In this document: piece by piece, positions 1,595-19,902 of the stretch
How the letters are laid out: every line of letters begins with the position of its first letter
How positions within the stretch are numbered: position 1 is the stretch's first letter
Assembly (NCBI RefSeq): GCF_002019605.1
Contig: NZ_KV917368.1
Location: 2,735,517-2,759,516, forward strand
Direction: 5' to 3'
From: Alkalihalobacterium alkalinitrilicum
Lineage (GTDB): Bacteria > Bacillota > Bacilli > Bacillales > Bacillaceae_F
Length of the DNA stretch: 24,000 bases
The notes under the pieces: generated by a model
The model's input: only the letters and a program-made list of their open reading frames with translations
What the model was told of the DNA's origin: nothing
Database searches by the model: none
Made by a program: the position numbers and the translations under genes

Positions 1595-2626
1595 CTATCT
1601 ATTTCTTAATCGACTATAAGCCGTCACACAGTACAATCCCATTGTTGACTTCTTTTTTACCATGTTAAGTAAAAATTTTTCATACTTTCCTAAAGTATTT
1701 TGGTGTAATTCGCAGTATGTAGGTAATGCTTCTCTTACAATTTGATTACTAATCATGTTTTTTATATATTCGTACCTTGTTTTAAAACTAACTTCATTTG
1801 AAGGTGAAAAATATACATGTATGTAGGACAGAACACTTTTGATTAACCTAACCGCCTTAAATTGATGTATTTTTTCTTTGTCTAGATGACCGACTATTTG
1901 TTCAGGTAATTCAAATTGATATACTTCTAATGCTCTCTCAAAATAATCTTTCTTTGAAATATTTCTAGTTGCGCTTCCCTCTACTTCTCTATAGTGGTAC
2001 CCCGTATAATCTATATATTTTGTGGTTGTAGCTTGACTAAAAAAGATCATATTAAACATACCATCTTCTCCTAGCGAAAGCTTTTCTGGAAACTTAATAC
2101 TGTTTTCTATTATGATTTTATTTTTGTATAACTTATTGCAAGCCGTATTTAAATTATCTGATTTTATAAAATAAGGTAATATTTCTTGATTGATATAGTC
2201 GTTATTCAAATTGATATTTAAGGGAAAGGGGTATTTTGTCATTACTTTATGTCCGTCTATTTCGTTTTCAAAATTACTGATTACAACATCACAATCACTT
2301 AATTTGGCCGAATGATATAAAGTTGCATACATATCCATTTCAATGTAATCATCAGCATCAACAAAACCTATATATTCTCCTGAAGCTATTTGTAAACCAT
2401 TGTTCCTAGCTATACTGACTCCACGATTTTCTTGGTTTATTAAAATAATTCGAGGATCTTTTTCTTTATAATCTTCGATTATTTTGCAACTATCATCTTT
2501 TGATCCGTCATTAATAAAAATAAATTCACAGTCTTGAAGTGCTTGCGATAGGAGTGATTCAATACATTGAGCAAGATATTTTTCAGCATTATAGACGGGG
2601 ATAATAACACTTACTTTTATACTCAT
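1595..2626 (-). CDS. Glycosyltransferase family 2
   Basis: GT-A signature VSVIIPVYNAEKYLAQCIESLLSQ...FINDGSKDDS...GFVDADD (DxD). ATG start with GGAGTG upstream. Only 2 nt separate it from the upstream gene. Confidence 0.85.
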   Translation of the reverse strand: MSIKVSVIIPVYNAEKYLAQCIESLLSQALQDCEFIFINDGSKDDSCKIIEDYKEKDPRIILINQENRGVSIARNNGLQIASGEYIGFVDADDYIEMDMYATLYHSAKLSDCDVVISNFENEIDGHKVMTKYPFPLNINLNNDYINQEILPYFIKSDNLNTACNKLYKNKIIIENSIKFPEKLSLGEDGMFNMIFFSQATTTKYIDYTGYHYREVEGSATRNISKKDYFERALEVYQFELPEQIVGHLDKEKIHQFKAVRLIKSVLSYIHVYFSPSNEVSFKTRYEYIKNMISNQIVREALPTYCELHQNTLGKYEKFLLNMVKKKSTMGLYCVTAYSRLRNR

Positions 2627-2628
2627 GT

Positions 2629-3879
2629 TTAAATCACTCCTTGAAAACTACGATTATTATTTTTTATATTCTTCTTGGTTTCCTGAACTTGCATATGTTC
2701 ATATAACTTCTCAAGTTCAACCTTATTTCTATAGTCTTTTTGCTTATTTCGAATAATTAACTTATTCCTAAGATCTTGATTAATATATAAACTTTCAATA
2801 CCATCAACTATTCCTTCAATACTTAATTCACAAATAATTCCATCAAACCCATCTTCTACTTGACTACTAGCCGTAGAATAATTTGTAATTAAAATAGGCT
2901 TCCCTAATATCATTGCCTCAGTTACGGTAACAGCCTTCCCTTCATACCTCGAAGGTTGAACATACAAATCAGCTTGTTTTATATATGGATATGGATTAAT
3001 TTGCTTACCTAAAAGGATAAAACTATTTTCAAGCCCATTCTCAGTAATTAATTGTTTTATCATCTCTTCATCTCCACCATAACCAACTACGTACCACGCA
3101 ATATCACTATATCCTTTATCCTTCAAAACTTTTAGTGCCTTAACCGCGTTATCAATTCCTTTTGCATGAGATAGCCTTGCTACTGTTGCAAGCTTAAATC
3201 TTTTATCTTTCACCATCGGATTTTCCACATCTACATCTGCCATCGTTCTAATAAATTCTGGTGATGTAATATTCTCAACAACCAATGTCTTATTAATTAA
3301 GGAATCATATTTTTTTAGAAATGATTGCTTACAAGCTTCAGATACTGCAACAATATGATCAAAATTATCCCAAAGCTTTAAGTCCATTTTTCTATCAGTT
3401 TCTACAGTTGAATAATCCGTATGAATCCAAGCTATTTTTCTCTTTGCTTTAACTTTTTCCGCAACAAAATCATGGGGCCAAAGATAACTAATTGCGACAT
3501 CGTACGCTACATCTAATTGTGGAAGAAAAGGCAACGCATATTTCCACATTAATTGCATTTGAAAATAACCTGGTTCTGACATCCTTTTTAACTTCCCTAA
3601 TACATCAGCATTAATCTTAGCTAAAATTCTTGTAGCTCCAATCGTAACCCGCTTTTCCTTAATTATTTCACTAATTGACTGTCTAAAGGTTGCGTACTGA
3701 GGAACCTCTGGTAATAAGTTCACTTGCTTAGGAATTAAACTCATAAATTCACCGTGATGGCGGTATAGCATTAAATCAACTTTATAATTTTCATAATCAA
3801 AGTTTTCGAGCATGCTGATTAAACTTCTTTCGACACCGCCTACTTCCATGTCAAAGGAGGCAATCAAAACCTTTTTCAT
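2629..3879 (-). CDS. Glycosyltransferase family 4 (GT-B)
   Basis: GT1/GT4 C-terminal motif (PSRYEGKAVTVTEAMILGKPILITN). AGGAGG RBS 6 nt before the ATG at 3879. Confidence 0.8.
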   Translation of the reverse strand: MKKVLIASFDMEVGGVERSLISMLENFDYENYKVDLMLYRHHGEFMSLIPKQVNLLPEVPQYATFRQSISEIIKEKRVTIGATRILAKINADVLGKLKRMSEPGYFQMQLMWKYALPFLPQLDVAYDVAISYLWPHDFVAEKVKAKRKIAWIHTDYSTVETDRKMDLKLWDNFDHIVAVSEACKQSFLKKYDSLINKTLVVENITSPEFIRTMADVDVENPMVKDKRFKLATVARLSHAKGIDNAVKALKVLKDKGYSDIAWYVVGYGGDEEMIKQLITENGLENSFILLGKQINPYPYIKQADLYVQPSRYEGKAVTVTEAMILGKPILITNYSTASSQVEDGFDGIICELSIEGIVDGIESLYINQDLRNKLIIRNKQKDYRNKVELEKLYEHMQVQETKKNIKNNNRSFQGVI

Positions 3880-4634: not shown

Positions 4635-5798
4635 TCACCTTTTTAATAGTGTATTTATTTTTAGTTCAGTATTGATTGCTTCTATTATTCTTTGTTGATC
4701 AGCATTAGACATACTCGAACCAGATGGTAAGCAAATCCCACTTCTAAACAACCCTTTTGCAATATCCTGCTCCTTACTATGAGCATAAAACAAACTGCCT
4801 TTGAATAAAGGCTGCATATGCAATGGCTTCCAAACAGGTCGTGCTTCAATATTTTCTTCTGCTAATCGGTCTAACATTGACTGAATTGTAAAACCTGCTT
4901 CTTTTTCGTCAATGGTTAAGGCTGTTAACCAACGATTAGAGCGAGTTCCTTCTAATTCAGGCATAAAAATAAGCCCCGGTATAGAGCCTAGTTCTGAAAC
5001 ATAGTTTTCAAAAATTGTTCTTCTTGCCGCTACTCTTTCTTCTAATACTTCTAACTGAGCTCTCCCAATTCCAGCTAGGATGTTACTCAAGCGATAATTG
5101 TATCCTTTTTTACTATGCTGATAATGTTGAGCTAAATCTCTTGCTTGCGTAGCCAGAAAGCGAGCTTTTTGTGCCATATCATGATCATTTGTTACCAGCA
5201 TCCCACCACCTGATGTGGTTATAATTTTGTTACCGTTAAATGAGAAGGTGCCAAATTCGCCAAAAGTTCCACTTGGCTTTCCTTTATACGTTGAACCTAA
5301 CGACTCAGCTGCATCCTCAATCATCGGAACGCTAAACTCATTACATAAGGCCACAATCTCATTCATTTTTGCACTTTGACCATATAAGTTGACAACGATG
5401 ATCGCTTTCGGAAGCTTTCCTTCGATTGCTGCATCTTGTAAGGCTCTTTTTAACGCATCAGGCGACATATTCCAAGTATCTGGCTCTGAGTCAATAAATA
5501 CAGGTTCTGCTCCTTGATAAAGAATAGGGTTCGCACTTGCAACAAAAGTTAAGCTAGAACAGAATACTCGATCTCCTTTTTCTACCCCTAATAAAATAAG
5601 AGCCAAATGAATAGCTGCTGTCCCCGAACTCAAGGCAACGGCTTCATTGACTCCAACATAGTTTGCTAGTTCTTTTTCAAAGGCATCGACATTTGGCCCG
5701 AGTGGGGCAATCCAATTCGTTTCAAATGCTTCCCTTATATACTTTGCCTCATTCCCACTCATGTGTGGTGGCGATAAAAAAATTCTTTTTTTACTCAT
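4635..5798 (-). CDS. epsN: DegT/DnrJ/EryC1-family PLP sugar aminotransferase (EpsN-like)
   Basis: Collinear with B. subtilis EpsN as I recall it (IFLSPPHMSG...NWIAPLGP...FSFNGNKIITTSGGGML...NYRLSNILAG...). The FSFNGNK lysine is the PLP site. The ATG overlaps the upstream stop (ATGA). Confidence 0.88.
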   Translation of the reverse strand: MSKKRIFLSPPHMSGNEAKYIREAFETNWIAPLGPNVDAFEKELANYVGVNEAVALSSGTAAIHLALILLGVEKGDRVFCSSLTFVASANPILYQGAEPVFIDSEPDTWNMSPDALKRALQDAAIEGKLPKAIIVVNLYGQSAKMNEIVALCNEFSVPMIEDAAESLGSTYKGKPSGTFGEFGTFSFNGNKIITTSGGGMLVTNDHDMAQKARFLATQARDLAQHYQHSKKGYNYRLSNILAGIGRAQLEVLEERVAARRTIFENYVSELGSIPGLIFMPELEGTRSNRWLTALTIDEKEAGFTIQSMLDRLAEENIEARPVWKPLHMQPLFKGSLFYAHSKEQDIAKGLFRSGICLPSGSSMSNADQQRIIEAINTELKINTLLKR

Positions 5799-6283
5799 GT
5801 CACACCCTCTTTCTTACTTATTATTTCTCCTACATGTAACTTTAATTTATTTAAGTAGTTTTCTGGGCACTTACTTTCCATATCAGAAAACCATCTTGCT
5901 TTAATGATATTTTTTTCAAGGTAAGGTCCTTCCTTAATCTCCAACCCTACTGTATCTTTCTCTAGACAAATATACGAGTGCCATCTACTAGGGTTAAATT
6001 TAATAATTTTATTTAAGTCATTAGAATTTAATTCTATTACATCCTCTATATCCCCATTATCATAGTAAAAGATAACAGCCATTCTGCCTTTTAAACAACA
6101 AATTGTTTCCGTATCGTTGTAGTGTTTGTGGGCGGCGATATATGTATCTGGCTGTATACAAAATAATATAGATTGGATCTTATCCTCATGAGTATGGTGC
6201 AGTAAAAAATGGCTACGCTTACTCTTTGAATTTAATGAATCATCAATTAACTTTTTAATATGATTATTATTTATTATAACCAT
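5795..6283 (-). CDS. Small cupin-fold protein (WbuC-like or sugar ketoisomerase-like); function unresolved
   Basis: About 160 aa, beta-rich, with a His pair (AAHKHYND) and a later His (RWHSY), typical of cupin metal sites in sugar-modification clusters. AAGGAG abuts the track ATG at 6292 with zero spacing. The next in-frame ATG at 6283 has 9-nt spacing and is preferred. Confidence 0.45.
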   Translation of the reverse strand: MVIINNNHIKKLIDDSLNSKSKRSHFLLHHTHEDKIQSILFCIQPDTYIAAHKHYNDTETICCLKGRMAVIFYYDNGDIEDVIELNSNDLNKIIKFNPSRWHSYICLEKDTVGLEIKEGPYLEKNIIKARWFSDMESKCPENYLNKLKLHVGEIISKKEGVT

Positions 6284-6296
6284 TGAGGTCATCTCC

Positions 6297-7109
6297 TTAA
6301 TTATGCATAAGGTGACTAATACTTTTTAGAATTTCATTGTTAACTACTGTATATCCTTCGCCTTTAATTACTGTTTTTACTCCTTCATAGGGAGGGTACC
6401 AAAACGCTCTTATTTTTCGATCAATTATTTCAGGTGTATCATCATCTTTTATATATTTCATCGCTTCAAACGCCTCTCTATTAATATAAAGCCCTTCATT
6501 TTCTTTTTGTTTAATTCTTGTAATAGGTGTATTAGTTTCTATTAAGTTCATAGCCCTTTTAAAAAGAGAGAACATATGAATTTGACTCTTTTTCTCAAGA
6601 CTTAAAGCAGTTTCTTTATCTCTATCAATAGGAAAATTTTCAATTTCGATTATTTCACCATCATCGATATTTTCATTCATAAAATGTGCGGTTACCCCAT
6701 AATTACATCTACCTTCTAATATAGCTTTATTATATCCACCTAGTCCTTTTAAATCTGGTAATGGAGCAGGATGGAAATTAATCGCTCCTATTTTGGGAAC
6801 TTCTAACAAAGACTTTTTAATCTTAGCCCAATATAAATATGAAATTACTAAATCAATTTCATTCAAATCAATTAAACTTTTTTCCGGAAACTCTATCCAC
6901 TCATACAACTCCGTAATTGATAGTGTCGGTATATTGTTCTCTTGAGCAACTTCAAACAATGATTTATTATTTTTACAGTCTAATTCTTCTGAAGGATTTC
7001 TTGCGACAACAGCCACTATTTCATGTCCGCTTGAAATAAGGTAATTGAGTGCTTTAGCAGCCCATATTTTCTTACCCATTAATATTATTCTTAGTTTCTT
7101 ATCGTTCAT
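6297..7109 (-). CDS. Formyltransferase-family enzyme (sugar N-formyltransferase candidate)
   Basis: Rossmann-like N-terminus (RIILMGKKIWAAKALNYLISSGHEIVAVV). Formyl_trans_N catalytic pattern Asn-x-His (GAINFHPAPLPDLKG) followed by Asp (NENIDDGEII). The track start at 7118 is a TTG. The ATG at 7109 with GGAAGGG upstream is preferred. Confidence 0.75.
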   Translation of the reverse strand: MNDKKLRIILMGKKIWAAKALNYLISSGHEIVAVVARNPSEELDCKNNKSLFEVAQENNIPTLSITELYEWIEFPEKSLIDLNEIDLVISYLYWAKIKKSLLEVPKIGAINFHPAPLPDLKGLGGYNKAILEGRCNYGVTAHFMNENIDDGEIIEIENFPIDRDKETALSLEKKSQIHMFSLFKRAMNLIETNTPITRIKQKENEGLYINREAFEAMKYIKDDDTPEIIDRKIRAFWYPPYEGVKTVIKGEGYTVVNNEILKSISHLMHN

Positions 7110-7124
7110 TACATCCAACCCTTC

Positions 7125-7715
7125 CTAATTGTTGCCTCTAAAATTTTCAGTTGTCTGATGACCTATTTGATTGATGCCCTCTGACTTAAATACTTTAATA
7201 ATTGTGAGTATAATTATCTTAATATCTAATAAAAAACTTTGATTTTCTACATACCAAACATCATATTTAAACTTTTCTTCCCAAGAAATTGCATTTCTTC
7301 CATTAACTTGAGCCCATCCAGTTATACCTGGTTTGATTGACTGACGCTTTAACTGTTCCTCTGAATATAATGGAACATACTGCATTAACAATGGTCTTGG
7401 TCCTATTAAACTTATATCACCTTTCAGTACATTTATTAACTGTGGTAATTCATCTAAGCTACTTTTACGAAGAAGCTTACCAAAAGAAGTAAGTCTCTGA
7501 TGGTCTGGAAGAAGTTTACCTTCATCGTCTTTCTCATTTGTCATCGTCCGAAATTTATACAAGTAAAATGGCTTACTATATAATCCTGGACGTTGTTGTT
7601 TAAAAAGTAACGGTGTTCCTAACTTTTTCTTAACGAGTACAGCTACAACCAAAATAACAGGAAATAAAATGAGTAAAAGGAACGATGAAACTACTACATC
7701 AAAGGCTCGTTTCAT
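7125..7715 (-). CDS. epsL: Small monotopic phosphoglycosyl (undecaprenyl-phosphate sugar) transferase, EpsL/PglC-like
   Basis: Bacterial sugar transferase motifs: N-terminal re-entrant helix, then KQQRPGL..KPFYLYKFRTM, DELPQLINVLKGDISLIGPRP and GITGWAQVNGRN. Close to recalled B. subtilis EpsL. GGAGGTG RBS. Confidence 0.9.
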   Translation of the reverse strand: MKRAFDVVVSSFLLLILFPVILVVAVLVKKKLGTPLLFKQQRPGLYSKPFYLYKFRTMTNEKDDEGKLLPDHQRLTSFGKLLRKSSLDELPQLINVLKGDISLIGPRPLLMQYVPLYSEEQLKRQSIKPGITGWAQVNGRNAISWEEKFKYDVWYVENQSFLLDIKIIILTIIKVFKSEGINQIGHQTTENFRGNN

Positions 7716-7756: not shown

Positions 7757-7909
7757 TTATTCTGTTGCATTGACTACTGTCATAATATGCTCTTTAATCT
7801 CTTCAATTAACTCTGTAACATTTATATTCTTTTCTGACTGTCCCTTTTCATAAATTGTTAGTAAAATATTTTGAAGTTGTTGTTCTGATAATTTTTCTGA
7901 TATGTTCAT
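7757..7909 (-). CDS. Hypothetical 50-aa ORF in the epsG-epsL gap
   Basis: Below the track size cut-off. ATG at 7909, TAA at 7759-7757. Peptide MNISEKLSEQQLQNILLTIYEKGQSEKNINVTELIEEIKEHIMTVVNATE. Only a weak purine-rich RBS (GAAAGAA). It fills most of the one 220-bp gap in an otherwise tightly packed stretch. Confidence 0.25.
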   Translation of the reverse strand: MNISEKLSEQQLQNILLTIYEKGQSEKNINVTELIEEIKEHIMTVVNATE

Positions 7910-7936
7910 TTCTTTCAACCCGACCTTTTAATAATT

Positions 7937-14216: not shown

Positions 14217-16043
14217 TTAACTTGGGATTGTCAATAGTGGTTTAACGGAAACTTTGTTATTTGCTAAATTCAATAAAGCTTCCCTCAGTGTGTCTTTATC
14301 TAACTTTGAATAATTTTTAATAATCTCTTCAATTTCGGTCATGTAAAGTACTGATGTTTTTCCGATATAAATCATTGGATATACTTGCTCTTCTTGAACT
14401 TCTTCTTCTTTTAAAAGTTCTTCAAATAACTTCTCGCCTGGACGCATGCCACTAAATTCAATTTCGATTTCCTCTAGTGAGTTGCCCGATAATTTGATCA
14501 AGTTTTTCGCCAAGTCTACAATTTTGACAGGTTCGCCCATATCTAACACGAAAATTTCTCCGCCTTTCGCTAATGCTCCAGCTTGGATGACTAGGCGAGA
14601 AGCTTCTGGGATCGTCATAAAATAACGAACCATATCAGGGTGTGTTACCGTGACAGGTCCGCCTTTTTCAATCTGCTTTTTAAATAATGGGATGACGCTT
14701 CCTCGACTTCCTAATACGTTACCGAAACGGACAGCAACGAACTTCGTTTGGCTTTGATTATTCATATCTTGAATAATCATTTCTGCTAATCGTTTCGTAG
14801 CACCCATAACACTCGTTGGATTGACAGCTTTATCGGTTGAGATCATCACAAAGGTATCGACATGGTGTAAACTAGCTGCCATTGCTACATTCCTCGTACC
14901 GATTAAATTATTTTTGACAGCTTCTTCAGGGTTTCTTTCCATTAACGGAACATGTTTATGAGCAGCTGCATGATACACGACATCTGGATGATATGTATTC
15001 ATCACGGTTAGCATTTTATTGGCATCTTGTAAGTCGGCAATCTCAGTAATAAAATCAATATTCGTATGGACAAACGTCTCCTTTAATTCCATCTCAATCG
15101 AGTAAATGCTATTTTCGCCATGACCTAATAACACTAACTGCTTAGGATTAAAGTTTGAGATTTGCCGACACACTTCAGAACCAATTGAGCCTCCCGCACC
15201 TGTTACTAGAACGACCCTGTCAGTGATATATCCAGAAATTTTATCAATGTCGAGTTGGACAGGCTCACGGCCGAGTAAGTCCTCAACTTGGACATCGCGG
15301 AATTGATTAACTGAAACCTTTCCGGTGACAAGATCCTCTAACATCGGCATGATTTGCGCCTTTGCCTTTGTTTTCACACAAGCTTGAAAAATATCATTTA
15401 ACTCTTTTTTACTTAATGAAGGGATGGCGATGATAATATTTTCAATGTTTAACTTATTTACTGTTTCCTCGATTCCACTCGAACCACCAACGACAGGTAT
15501 TCCTAAAATATCTAATTGTTGTTTTTTCATATCATCATCAATAAAAGCAATAGGTAGTAACTCCCCGTCATTACTTTTTAAAAGTTGTCTCGCAACCATC
15601 GTTCCCGCAGAACCAGCACCGATGATGAGCGTTCTTTTTTTATTGTCTTCTTTATTCATATACGTATCACGATACATTCGCCAAACAAAGCGAGAACTTC
15701 CAATGAGTAAGATATGAAGCATCCACGTGATCGCTAACACGCGCAAGAATGTTTCTTGCAGGAAAAATTGCTGAACTAAAAATGCAGTAAGAATTGAAAA
15801 GGTAACGACTTTAAAAATGATTAATAGTTCCCCAATGCTCGCATACTCCCAGGCTTTTTTATACAGCTTTAGTACAATCGCAAAGAAATGATGACTCACT
15901 AATATAACGATTAGACTAGTAATGATCGGTAGTGTAAAAAAATTCAAGTCTGCTTTAACGAGAAAATGGCTGACAAAGATCGCCGTTAAAACAATACATG
16001 AATCAATGAGTATAAATAAGGAAAGCCTTTGCCGATACGTCAT
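14217..16043 (-). CDS. epsC: Membrane-anchored polysaccharide biosynthesis protein, UDP-GlcNAc 4,6-dehydratase type (EpsC/CapD/PglF-like)
   Basis: Four N-terminal TM helices followed by two Rossmann regions (IIGAGSAG; VTGAGGSIGSE). Also has the CapD-like core (YHAAAHKHVPLME, MISTDKAVNPTSVMGATKR). AGGAGGGG RBS. Confidence 0.9.
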   Translation of the reverse strand: MTYRQRLSLFILIDSCIVLTAIFVSHFLVKADLNFFTLPIITSLIVILVSHHFFAIVLKLYKKAWEYASIGELLIIFKVVTFSILTAFLVQQFFLQETFLRVLAITWMLHILLIGSSRFVWRMYRDTYMNKEDNKKRTLIIGAGSAGTMVARQLLKSNDGELLPIAFIDDDMKKQQLDILGIPVVGGSSGIEETVNKLNIENIIIAIPSLSKKELNDIFQACVKTKAKAQIMPMLEDLVTGKVSVNQFRDVQVEDLLGREPVQLDIDKISGYITDRVVLVTGAGGSIGSEVCRQISNFNPKQLVLLGHGENSIYSIEMELKETFVHTNIDFITEIADLQDANKMLTVMNTYHPDVVYHAAAHKHVPLMERNPEEAVKNNLIGTRNVAMAASLHHVDTFVMISTDKAVNPTSVMGATKRLAEMIIQDMNNQSQTKFVAVRFGNVLGSRGSVIPLFKKQIEKGGPVTVTHPDMVRYFMTIPEASRLVIQAGALAKGGEIFVLDMGEPVKIVDLAKNLIKLSGNSLEEIEIEFSGMRPGEKLFEELLKEEEVQEEQVYPMIYIGKTSVLYMTEIEEIIKNYSKLDKDTLREALLNLANNKVSVKPLLTIPS

Positions 16044-16305: not shown

Positions 16306-16415
16306 AGGGCATCTAACCCCTCCTCACACCATACTATCGACGACTTGCGTCTAAGGTTTGTCAACCCACAGCATGACCGAGTACCTCCGTTGATAATGGT
16401 AAGGAGGTATCACCA
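16306..16415 (-). ncRNA. Candidate EAR (eps-associated RNA / epsC motif) processive-antitermination element
   Basis: It lies in the epsB-epsC intergenic gap, where EAR sits in Bacillales eps operons, and is locally GC-rich compared with its AT-rich flanks. On the minus-strand RNA there is a hairpin GAUACCUCC (16411-16403) / GGAGGUACUC (16388-16379). Its 14-nt loop segment ACCAUUAUC can pair with the downstream GAUAGUAUGGU (16338-16328), giving 9 bp with a 2-nt bulge, i.e. a pseudoknot. Small hairpins GGUUGACAAACC and GACGCAAGUCGUC are also present. I did not compare it with the Rfam model. Confidence 0.4.
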
Positions 16416-17829: not shown

Positions 17830-17869
17830 ATCGTTCTCCACCAACTTATTATTTGATTACTTTAGTGTA

Positions 17870-18033: not shown

Positions 18034-18399
18034 TTATTCGCAAAATTCATTATGGCTTACTTTCTTACTTTGATTTTTCATATGATCCAACTTTTGAATC
18101 ATATCTCTTAGTTCTTCTAAACTAATATTTTTTCGTTTCATTTCTTCGGTTAGGTGGATGAGTTGGATATCTACTACGTTTTCTTTAGTACTTGTCTTAC
18201 TTTGTCCATTAAAAAAATAAGCGATATCAATTTTAAAGTAGTTTGATAGACTTTCTAAAACTTCAATAGCAGGCTTCCGATTTCCGCGTTCAATTTTTGA
18301 TAAATTACTATAATTAAATTCAATTGCATCCCCTAATTCTTTTAATGTCATCCCATGGCTTAGTCGCAAATCTTTAATTCTCTCTCCAATATGCTTCAA
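18034..18399 (-). CDS. XRE-family HTH regulator with a C-terminal Sin-like helical region (SlrR-like candidate)
   Basis: N-terminal HTH_3 pattern (IKDLRLSHGMTLKELGDAIEFNYSNLSKIERGNRKP). The C-terminus LIHLTEEMKRKNISLEELRDMIQKL loosely resembles the SinI/SinR interaction helices. TTG start at 18399 supported by GGAGTGAG 6 nt upstream. It sits next to epsA, as slrR does in B. subtilis. Confidence 0.7.
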   Translation of the reverse strand: MKHIGERIKDLRLSHGMTLKELGDAIEFNYSNLSKIERGNRKPAIEVLESLSNYFKIDIAYFFNGQSKTSTKENVVDIQLIHLTEEMKRKNISLEELRDMIQKLDHMKNQSKKVSHNEFCE

Positions 18400-19566: not shown

Positions 19567-19902
19567 ATGATCGGTGAAAAAGTCAAGAAATTACGCTTAG
19601 AAAAGGGCTTATCTTTATCTGAACTAGCAGAATCTGCTGGAGTTGCAAAGTCTTACTTAAGTTCAATTGAAAGAAACATCCAATCGAATCCTTCGATACA
19701 ATTCCTTGAAAAGATCTCAAAAGTTTTAGGTGTAAGCGTCGAGACCGTATTAAACGAAAATAATGAAAAACAATCGGTAACCGAATACGACCTAGACTCT
19801 GCTTGGATCGAGTTAGTCAAAGAAGCTATGGAGTCAGGTGTGAGTAAAGAGCAATTCCGTGAATACTTGGAATTTAATAAATGGCGTAAACACAATAGTT
19901 AA
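19567..19902 (+). CDS. sinR: SinR master biofilm repressor
   Basis: 111 aa, collinear with recalled B. subtilis SinR: MIG...KGxSLSELAExAGVAKSYLSSIERNxQxNPSIQFLEKxSxVLxVSV and C-terminal SGVSKxQFRExLxxxKWRK. Confidence 0.92.
   Translation: MIGEKVKKLRLEKGLSLSELAESAGVAKSYLSSIERNIQSNPSIQFLEKISKVLGVSVETVLNENNEKQSVTEYDLDSAWIELVKEAMESGVSKEQFREYLEFNKWRKHNS

Follow-up and report, generated by a model that had tools for sequence, protein, structure and literature searches.

The 24,000-nucleotide stretch of the Alkalihalobacterium alkalinitrilicum genome analyzed here (contig NZ_KV917368.1, positions 2,735,517 to 2,759,516; hereafter the window, whose numbering is used for all coordinates) carries a Bacillus-type eps operon in which the acetyltransferase gene epsM has been replaced by two other genes, one for a formyltransferase-family enzyme and one for a small cupin of the WbuC family. 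With a probability of roughly 0.6, we propose that the formyltransferase formylates UDP-4-amino-4,6-dideoxy-GlcNAc to yield UDP-2-acetamido-4-formamido-2,4,6-trideoxy-D-glucose (UDP-QuiNAc4NFo). In the envisaged route, EpsC would convert UDP-GlcNAc into UDP-2-acetamido-2,6-dideoxy-D-xylo-hexos-4-ulose, which the PglE/EpsN-like aminotransferase would turn into UDP-4-amino-4,6-dideoxy-D-GlcNAc; the formyltransferase, with its Asn-His-Asp site and N10-formyl-tetrahydrofolate, would then formylate N4, and the PglC/EpsL-like phosphoglycosyl transferase (PGT) would load QuiNAc4NFo phosphate onto undecaprenyl phosphate, so that this sugar would begin every repeat unit. The first, second and fourth of these steps are predicted from close homology to characterized enzymes (PMC10653937), and the third is proposed from gene context, fold and catalytic residues. 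In Bacillus subtilis, di-N-acetylbacillosamine (diNAcBac) is part of the exopolysaccharide backbone in every repeat unit (PMC11447030), and a formyl-for-acetyl exchange would for this reason alter the whole polymer and not just one of its ends.

The replacement becomes apparent when the window is compared with the eps operons of close relatives. The aminotransferase encoded next to the slot in question has its nearest relatives in Alkalihalobacterium elongatum (89% identity) and Alkalihalobacterium chitinilyticum (82%), and the operons of these two species (L088 and L089, respectively) are arranged gene by gene as in the window, with 15 proteins being 62-94% identical; among the A. elongatum orthologs, the PGT and the EpsC-like dehydratase share 80 and 83% identity with their counterparts. 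Between the PGT and aminotransferase genes, both relatives possess a gene for a 211-amino-acid protein that reaches 220-224 bits against TIGR03570 (NeuD/PglB/VioB; cutoff 160.8 bits) and that can therefore be classified as an EpsM/PglD-type enzyme. Neither the formyltransferase nor the cupin has a counterpart in either of these operons, and the two proteins encoded in the slot of the window are devoid of hexapeptide repeats and fall outside the EpsM/PglD family (TIGR03570). At the DNA level, homology to both relatives extends to the stop codon of the PGT gene, is then lost and reappears in the initial codons of the aminotransferase gene (alignments A3 and A4); the replaced segment comprises about 1.33 kb (5796-7124, minus strand) as compared with about 0.68 kb, including epsM, in the relatives. 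An EpsM/PglD-type acetyltransferase gene has been precisely exchanged for a formyltransferase and cupin module at the orthologous slot.

This comparison is much stronger evidence than the absence of epsM from the window, which the initial annotation had noted for the interval between epsL and epsN. That absence is nonetheless real. No hexapeptide acetyltransferase was detected between epsL and epsN, or elsewhere, in Pfam and NCBIfam scans of the open reading frames of the minus-strand operon and of three upstream open reading frames; tblastn searches of the window with four hexapeptide proteins revealed no hidden acetyltransferase, and a tblastn search with an EpsM ortholog found no remnant of epsM (every match with E > 0.7).

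Two minus-strand open reading frames, 6297-7118 and 5795-6292, exactly occupy the span 5795-7118. The formyltransferase most likely begins at the ATG at position 7109 (6297-7109; 270 amino acids, MNDKK...), with a TTG at 7118 as a possible alternative, and the cupin probably begins at the ATG at position 6283 (5795-6283; 162 amino acids). A Shine-Dalgarno-like sequence is positioned 9 nucleotides upstream of each of these ATG codons, and both starts agree with those of database proteins (P0001 and P0121, respectively). The genes are tightly packed: the PGT reading frame ends at position 7125, and the stop codon of the cupin gene overlaps the start codon of the aminotransferase gene (ATGA), an arrangement suited for translational coupling. 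Since at least 480 homologs of the formyltransferase and 1210 cluster representatives of the cupin family exist, we regard both open reading frames as real genes and not as chance occurrences.

The formyltransferase matches the Formyl_trans_N domain (Pfam PF00551) over residues 10-178 with 62.7 bits (gathering cutoff 26.1). Its residues Asn114, His116 and Asp152 (in the numbering of the 273-amino-acid form) align to the catalytic N-x-H motif and the catalytic Asp residue of the methionyl-tRNA formyltransferase Fmt and are invariant across 20 diverse homologs; the motifs NFHPAPLP, GGYN and RAFWYPPY are specific for the family. The initial annotation had described an Asn-His-Asp formyltransferase next to a small cupin at this position, and this description proved to be correct on both counts. 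The AlphaFold model of the enzyme, with a predicted local distance difference test score (pLDDT) of 92, consists of the N-terminal domain and a small C-terminal subdomain and lacks the tRNA-binding domain of Fmt. Its top fold match is WbkC, the GDP-perosamine N-formyltransferase of Brucella (TMt 0.83-0.85), with the whole 250-amino-acid enzyme being covered; Fmt, the N-terminal domain of ArnA and WlaRD follow, at identities of 21-26%. Two specific identities were considered and dismissed. The protein is not an Fmt, as it scores 84.3 bits against TIGR00460 (cutoff 201.5) and is about 45 amino acids shorter; nor is it an ArnA (71.3 bits against NF005998 with a cutoff of 777), as it consists of a single formyltransferase module without a decarboxylase domain. 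Among the curated NCBIfam equivalogs, it remained below every cutoff (fmt, ArnA, PurN and dTDP-4-amino-4,6-dideoxyglucose formyltransferase). The comparison with characterized sugar N-formyltransferases that the initial annotation had recommended hence affirmed a shared fold and triad, with WbkC as the best match, but it did not place the enzyme in any known group. The family to which it belongs is large and dispersed: a word-indexed protein search yielded at least 480 homologs at E < 1e-5, the nearest being only 58% identical, and a scan of a genome collection located the family in the genomes of 311 species, with no locus exceeding 56% identity. A plasmid search returned nothing but a partial match from Fusobacterium. 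The GC content at third codon positions (GC3) of the gene is 0.208, the lowest of the operon. Taking model and catalytic residues together, we infer that the protein is a sugar N-formyltransferase of a family as yet uncharacterized; judged by its gene context, it should transfer the formyl group of N10-formyl-tetrahydrofolate to a nucleotide-linked amino sugar.

The enzymes flanking the slot are those expected for the synthesis and transfer of a bacillosamine-type sugar, as the initial annotation had correctly recognized from homologs of EpsC, EpsN and EpsL. The first step of the pathway can be attributed to a membrane-anchored UDP-GlcNAc 4,6-dehydratase of the EpsC/PglF type (14217-16043, minus strand; 608 amino acids), which comprises a Polysacc_synt_2 domain (1.5e-124) and an N-terminal CoA_binding_3 domain. 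The 4-amino substrate would be supplied by a pyridoxal phosphate-dependent C4 aminotransferase of the EpsN/PglE type (4635-5798, minus strand; DegT family, 4.6e-102), which matches PglE from Campylobacter jejuni (PDB 1o61) at 7.7e-108 and the C3 aminotransferases QdtB and WbpE far more weakly (1e-46 to 1e-41). The small monotopic PGT of the EpsL/PglC type (7125-7715, minus strand; Bac_transf, 4e-65) aligns end-to-end and without gaps with PglC (PDB 8g1n; 2.5e-72) and is predicted to load a 4-acylamido bacillosamine phosphate onto undecaprenyl phosphate. According to Anderson et al., an aromatic box, a G-x-L-L-P loop and a long C-terminus mark those PGTs that use UDP-diNAcBac (PMC10186338). The enzyme of the window retains this fingerprint, with Y/Y (QYVPLY), W/F (SWEEKF) and a C-terminal F (ENFRG) in the aromatic box, a GKLLP loop and a full-length C-terminus; the five-residue aromatic box, the loop and the extended C-terminus were checked on the alignment.

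In the PglC protein of Campylobacter concisus, a salt bridge between Glu117 and Lys196 places the C-terminal loop (PMC10186338). By-eye reading of our alignment, in which the numbering of the Campylobacter chain is provisional, suggests a Gln/Asn pair (mQYvp ... eNFrg) at residues ~111 and ~191 of the PGT where PglC has these two charged residues. The two substitutions may be linked and may lie close to the sugar pocket.

The arrangement found in A. alkalinitrilicum is no isolated case. The gene order PGT-formyltransferase-aminotransferase is present in at least seven Bacillales species beyond the source genome, namely Bacillus freudenreichii, Halobacillus sp. BBL2006, Bacillus songklensis, Cytobacillus purgationiresistens, Jeotgalicoccus nanhaiensis, Corticicoccus populi and Salinicoccus roseus, and those Bacillales clusters with this enzyme whose gene content is listed contain no PglD-type acetyltransferase. 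The clusters of Halobacillus and Salinicoccus do include hexapeptide genes, which we rejected as substitutes for EpsM, as their products score 58-85 bits against TIGR03570, below the cutoff, and resemble O-acetyltransferases of the WbbJ/WcaF/Vat type. The PGT and the formyltransferase even occur as a single protein: P0008 (460 amino acids, from a 2870-bp Logan contig) joins a PglC/EpsL-like PGT in frame to a domain of this formyltransferase family, and in it the C-terminus of the PGT (...FTGNK) passes straight into MKLNIVFMGRKYW.... In Thermoleophilaceae, a gene of the family is located a few kilobases away from genes for a long EpsC-like dehydratase and a DegT aminotransferase. The idea of the initial annotation that the 4-amino group is formylated instead of acetylated has thus been strengthened by the slot swap, by this recurrence, by the PGT fusion and by the WbkC-like model, with the activity itself still being deduced from them. 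Its view that a formamido priming sugar would be unusual for a Bacillus biofilm polysaccharide stands in so far as the cassette is unstudied, but the cassette is not unique to the source genome.

A second recurrent setting involves nonulosonic acid synthesis. In about 13 loci from diverse phyla and from DPANN archaea, the formyltransferase family is encoded together with NeuB, a hydrolyzing 2-epimerase, a DegT aminotransferase and a short 4,6-dehydratase. Legionaminic-type loci of this kind (L012, L038, L044, L049 and L082) are found in Bacillales, candidate-phyla bacteria and DPANN archaea. In the cluster of Thalassobacillus pellis (L082, 3413-8810), the sole one for which the gene content is listed, the formyltransferase is 52% identical to that of the window, a CMP-sugar synthetase is present and an acetyltransferase is absent. 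To judge from their gene content, these NeuB-linked clusters appear to represent legionaminic acid pathways in which N4-acetylation has been replaced, with 4-amino-4,6-dideoxy-GlcNAc as the intermediate in common with the eps pathway, and they predict the formation of 7-N-formyl legionaminic acids. Formylated legionaminic-type sugars have been reported from Kuenenia, where a formyltransferase is encoded in the leg cluster (bioRxiv 10.64898/2026.04.20.719630), and have been predicted for Halorubrum (PMC6137143); by analogy, these precedents fit the NeuB-linked context.

Formylation need not be permanent, and the question therefore arises as to whether the formyl group could be removed again after lipid transfer or polymerization, leaving a free 4-amino sugar and, together with pyruvate ketals, a zwitterionic polymer. 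In the Arn pathway, ArnA formylates UDP-Ara4N and thereby draws an unfavorable transamination forward, and ArnD later strips off the formyl group. The enzyme studied here is related to the formyltransferase domain of ArnA (NF005998, 5.5e-20; fold TMq 0.74-0.76), the operon encodes a pyruvyl transferase, and a legionaminic-type sugar of Kuenenia bears a free amine alongside a formylated one (bioRxiv 10.64898/2026.04.20.719630). However, no ArnD/NodB-type deacetylase or any other amidohydrolase is encoded among the operon genes of the window, beyond which the operon continues, and the Bacillales cassettes with listed gene content contain no deformylase-type gene either. We consider transient formylation very improbable and favor a formyl group that stays in place.

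The cupin encoded in the slot belongs to the WbuC family (TIGR04366, 117.4 bits with a cutoff of 42) and carries the metal-site motif His-x-His...Glu...His of this family, with the residues His52, His54, Glu59 and His102 being conserved among 30 family members. Its model (pLDDT 94) matches generic metal-binding cupins, including the cupin domain of CapF and QdtA, with TM values of ~0.5-0.6; QdtA ranks in the middle of these matches (TMq 0.46). A sequence search of the PDB with the cupin returned nothing above noise. Among the 1210 cluster representatives of the family (E up to 1e-3), there is one close cluster (53% identity), and the next is at most 37% identical. The genomic context is known for three copies, those of the window, of Halobacillus (L085) and of Salinicoccus (L086), which share 50-53% identity with each other; all three are placed between the formyltransferase and aminotransferase genes. 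The remaining formyltransferase loci contain no such cupin, which is missing from six of the nine Bacillales cassettes. On the basis of these three sequences with known context, the cupin appears to represent a small WbuC subclade found solely beside this formyltransferase, and it seems to be an accessory partner of the latter that is dispensable for the pathway in most species possessing the enzyme.

We know of no member of the WbuC family with a known function. Some WbuC/DUF6016 cupins (P0129, P0179, P0236 and P0257) are joined in one protein to NUDIX, HIT, sugar C-methyltransferase or hexapeptide (left-handed beta-helix) acyltransferase domains, and the archetypal WbuC of Escherichia coli is encoded behind fnlA-capF-wecB and a family 4 glycosyltransferase gene in the L-FucNAc cluster, whose pathway begins with the 4,6-dehydration of UDP-GlcNAc. 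Together, these fusions and this context point to nucleotide-sugar chemistry on UDP-2-acetamido-2,6-dideoxyhexoses, and our best guess is that the cupin binds or acts on an intermediate of this type. Matches of the cupin on plasmids comprise passenger genes of mcr-9 and blaCTX-M and one E. coli O-antigen cluster.

Might the cupin then alter the UDP-4-keto sugar before its amination, by epimerization at C3 or C5 or by 3,4-ketoisomerization, so that a stereo- or regio-isomer of bacillosamine and not QuiNAc4NFo is formed? Those fusion partners and the E. coli context would be compatible with such a function, as would the presence of the CapF cupin domain and QdtA among the fold matches and a weak match to the FdtA family of Pfam. 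That match (PF05523), however, amounts to 17 bits with a threshold of 23, the fold matches are generic, and the partner aminotransferase is a C4-type relative of PglE; we accordingly rejected the assignment of the cupin as an FdtA/QdtA-type 3,4-ketoisomerase, and with it the suggestion of the initial annotation that the amino group is repositioned. Furthermore, the aminotransferase and the PGT are so similar to orthologs that operate with EpsM and without a cupin that no adaptation to another sugar is visible. As most cassettes also lack the cupin, we think that it leaves the sugar configuration unchanged, and the formation of an isomer through the cupin is improbable. QuiNAc4NFo remains the product that we prefer.

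Several considerations weigh against our proposal. We found no member of the formyltransferase family that has been assayed, and the identity to characterized sugar N-formyltransferases is ~24-26%, for which reason donor and acceptor are drawn from gene context. Some copies of the family are located outside sugar clusters (for instance, L083), and the family may not be uniform in its substrate. PglC-type transferases are reported to be selective for their sugar donor (PMC10186338), and acceptance of the 4-formamido analogue by the PGT is a prediction. The cupin has no assigned role in the proposed scheme, and in the open-access literature, we found no report of QuiNAc4NFo or other 2-acetamido-4-formamido sugars in any glycan. 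Finally, a PglD/EpsM paralog is possible elsewhere in the genome, our acetyltransferase search having covered the window.

These points lead to an alternative in which the formyltransferase is inactive or acts on another amine, an acetyltransferase is encoded outside the window and the polymer keeps diNAcBac, as the full diNAcBac fingerprint of the PGT and the family members residing outside sugar clusters would permit. We regard this as unlikely. The replacement coincides exactly with the epsM slot, the order of the three genes is found again in seven further species, P0008 is an in-frame fusion of PGT and formyltransferase, the catalytic residues are invariant, and the arrangement for translational coupling within the operon is intact. 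Moreover, the sole hexapeptide protein expected nearby from synteny is the 186-amino-acid protein of the relatives, which resembles an O-acetyltransferase and coexists there with EpsM; since the relatives carry its gene in addition to epsM, its presence outside the window would not refute formylation. For formylation of the 4-amino sugar, which we continue to favor, we infer the donor of the formyl group as well as acceptor and product, and also that the PGT accepts this product.

The operon as a whole is typical of the Bacillus eps type. From position 17844 downward, every large open reading frame of the window has minus-strand orientation; the series begins with a Wzz/EpsA-like protein and parts of an EpsB-like kinase, followed by the epsC RNA leader, the EpsC/PglF-like dehydratase and a GalU-like nucleotidyltransferase. 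Four glycosyltransferases, EpsG, a small YwzD-like open reading frame, the PGT, the formyltransferase and the cupin come next, and the PglE/EpsN-like aminotransferase, three more glycosyltransferases and a pyruvyl transferase follow. The epsC RNA (EAR) leader is present in full length between the EpsB-like and EpsC-like genes (16306-16415, minus strand; RF01735, 111.5 bits with a gathering cutoff of 42), and this processive antitermination element identifies the gene cluster as a genuine Bacillus-type eps operon, in keeping with the joint occurrence of EpsA/B, EpsC, EpsG, EpsL, EpsN and the pyruvyl transferase. A glycosyltransferase gene starting at position 394 (minus strand), whose product is 62% identical to that of the next gene in A. 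elongatum, is truncated by the low window boundary, and the operon consequently extends past it. By synteny, another glycosyltransferase, a GH88 hydrolase, the 186-amino-acid hexapeptide O-acetyltransferase-like protein and a flippase are probably encoded there.

Some further features of the region deserve mention. Between epsG and the PGT gene, a 53-codon open reading frame (7757-7918, minus strand) occupies the place where the relatives hold a gene for a YwzD-family protein (PF26162) of 57-58 amino acids, and it was assigned by this position. A SinR-type regulator with HTH_3 and SinI domains is encoded upstream of the eps operon (19567-19902, plus strand), together with a second small helix-turn-helix protein (18034-18399, minus strand); both genes are part of a region of low GC content (27%). 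The biofilm master regulator thus appears to be physically linked to eps in this genome. GC3 is uneven along the operon (noted for 1595-3879 and 5795-7715, minus strand), with values of 0.21-0.23 in the genes for the formyltransferase, the PGT and the last family 2 glycosyltransferase and of 0.35-0.39 in those for EpsC and the first family 4 glycosyltransferase, and the downstream glycosyltransferases are the least conserved ones in comparison with Alkalihalobacterium (62-72%). This pattern suggests exchanges in more than one part of the operon.

Bacillosamine, which is specific to bacteria, is the initial sugar of many pathogen glycans and of the B. subtilis biofilm exopolysaccharide, and its N4-acyl group is a known site of natural variation. 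The type of pathway, the enzyme superfamily, the variation at N4 and the formylation of an L-altro analogue by PseJ were already known. What our analysis adds is a formyltransferase family, with members in more than 300 species that range from Bacillales through candidate-phyla bacteria to DPANN archaea, that appears to be a general counterpart of PglD, EpsM and LegH, as well as QuiNAc4NFo as a predicted sugar and a WbuC subclade that seems dedicated to the formyltransferase. The exchange of an acetyltransferase for a formyltransferase between collinear operons of closely related species constitutes a natural experiment, and it offers a direct test of how strict PglC/EpsL-type PGTs are toward the N4 substituent. 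The same enzyme family probably explains, by analogy, the N-formyl legionaminic acids now seen by mass spectrometry, and the attached cupin provides a rare clue to what WbuC proteins do, which are otherwise encountered mostly as passengers of mcr-9 and blaCTX-M. A more far-reaching version would have the formyltransferase and its dedicated cupin jointly make an undescribed sugar, be it QuiNAc4NFo in every repeat of the exopolysaccharide or an isomer generated by the cupin as a new UDP-4-keto-HexNAc epimerase, with the formyltransferase family as the general N-formyl counterpart of PglD and LegH in the pathways to bacillosamine as well as to legionaminic acid. Doubtful as we consider this version to be, it would, if true, reveal the first function for a WbuC cupin.

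Viewed against known systems, the window shares with EpsC-EpsN-EpsM-EpsL of B. subtilis and PglF-PglE-PglD-PglC of Campylobacter the same kind of dehydratase, of aminotransferase and of small PGT, and the genes surrounding the slot stand in the same order (PMC10653937; PMC11447030). With the eps operon of B. subtilis, it further has the epsC RNA leader, EpsG and the pyruvyl transferase in common. It differs from these EpsM/PglD systems in that the left-handed beta-helix acetyltransferase dependent on acetyl-CoA is missing, and a folate-type formyltransferase and a cupin are present instead. The formyltransferase has the full-length fold and the Asn-His-Asp triad of WbkC (acting on GDP-perosamine), the N-terminal domain of ArnA (UDP-Ara4N), WlaRD and HCAN_0200 (dTDP-Qui3N/Fuc3N), FdtF and VioF/WbtJ, and it resembles WbkC in its size and its small C-terminal subdomain. 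Yet, at 21-26% identity to these characterized enzymes, it forms a family of its own, and its predicted acceptor, a UDP-2-acetamido-4-amino-2,4,6-trideoxyhexose, is used by none of them. A functional precedent is PseJ of Anoxybacillus kamchatkensis (PDB 6ci2), an enzyme that formylates UDP-4-amino-4,6-dideoxy-L-AltNAc in the pseudaminic acid pathway. Both are folate-type enzymes of Bacillaceae that take the place of an N-acetyltransferase, and in either case a UDP-2-acetamido-2,4,6-trideoxyhexose would be modified at its 4-amino group, the substrate of the enzyme studied here being a predicted one. Their sequence match is weak and partial (E 4e-6, residues 79-161), and PseJ is shorter (about 190-217 amino acids), belongs to another subfamily, uses an L-altro sugar and feeds into nonulosonic acid synthesis instead of a PGT. 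The cupin has family membership and metal-site residues in common with the WbuC protein of E. coli O-antigen clusters (TIGR04366), which is also found beside mcr-9 and blaCTX-M on plasmids, and the pathway of the chromosomal archetype likewise starts from UDP-GlcNAc 4,6-dehydration; it is, however, only ~30% identical to this protein and part of a separate small subclade located between the formyltransferase and aminotransferase genes. In Neisseria, PglB is a PGT fused to a bacillosamine acetyltransferase domain, and the pglB2 allele leads to a glyceramido instead of an acetamido group. There, as in the operon described here, the N4-acyl group is varied by exchanging the acylating module beside the PGT or fused to it, with P0008 as the formyltransferase equivalent of PglB; what sets the present case apart is that the acyl group is predicted to be formyl, the enzyme is of the folate type, and a Gram-positive host makes an exopolysaccharide instead of a protein glycan.

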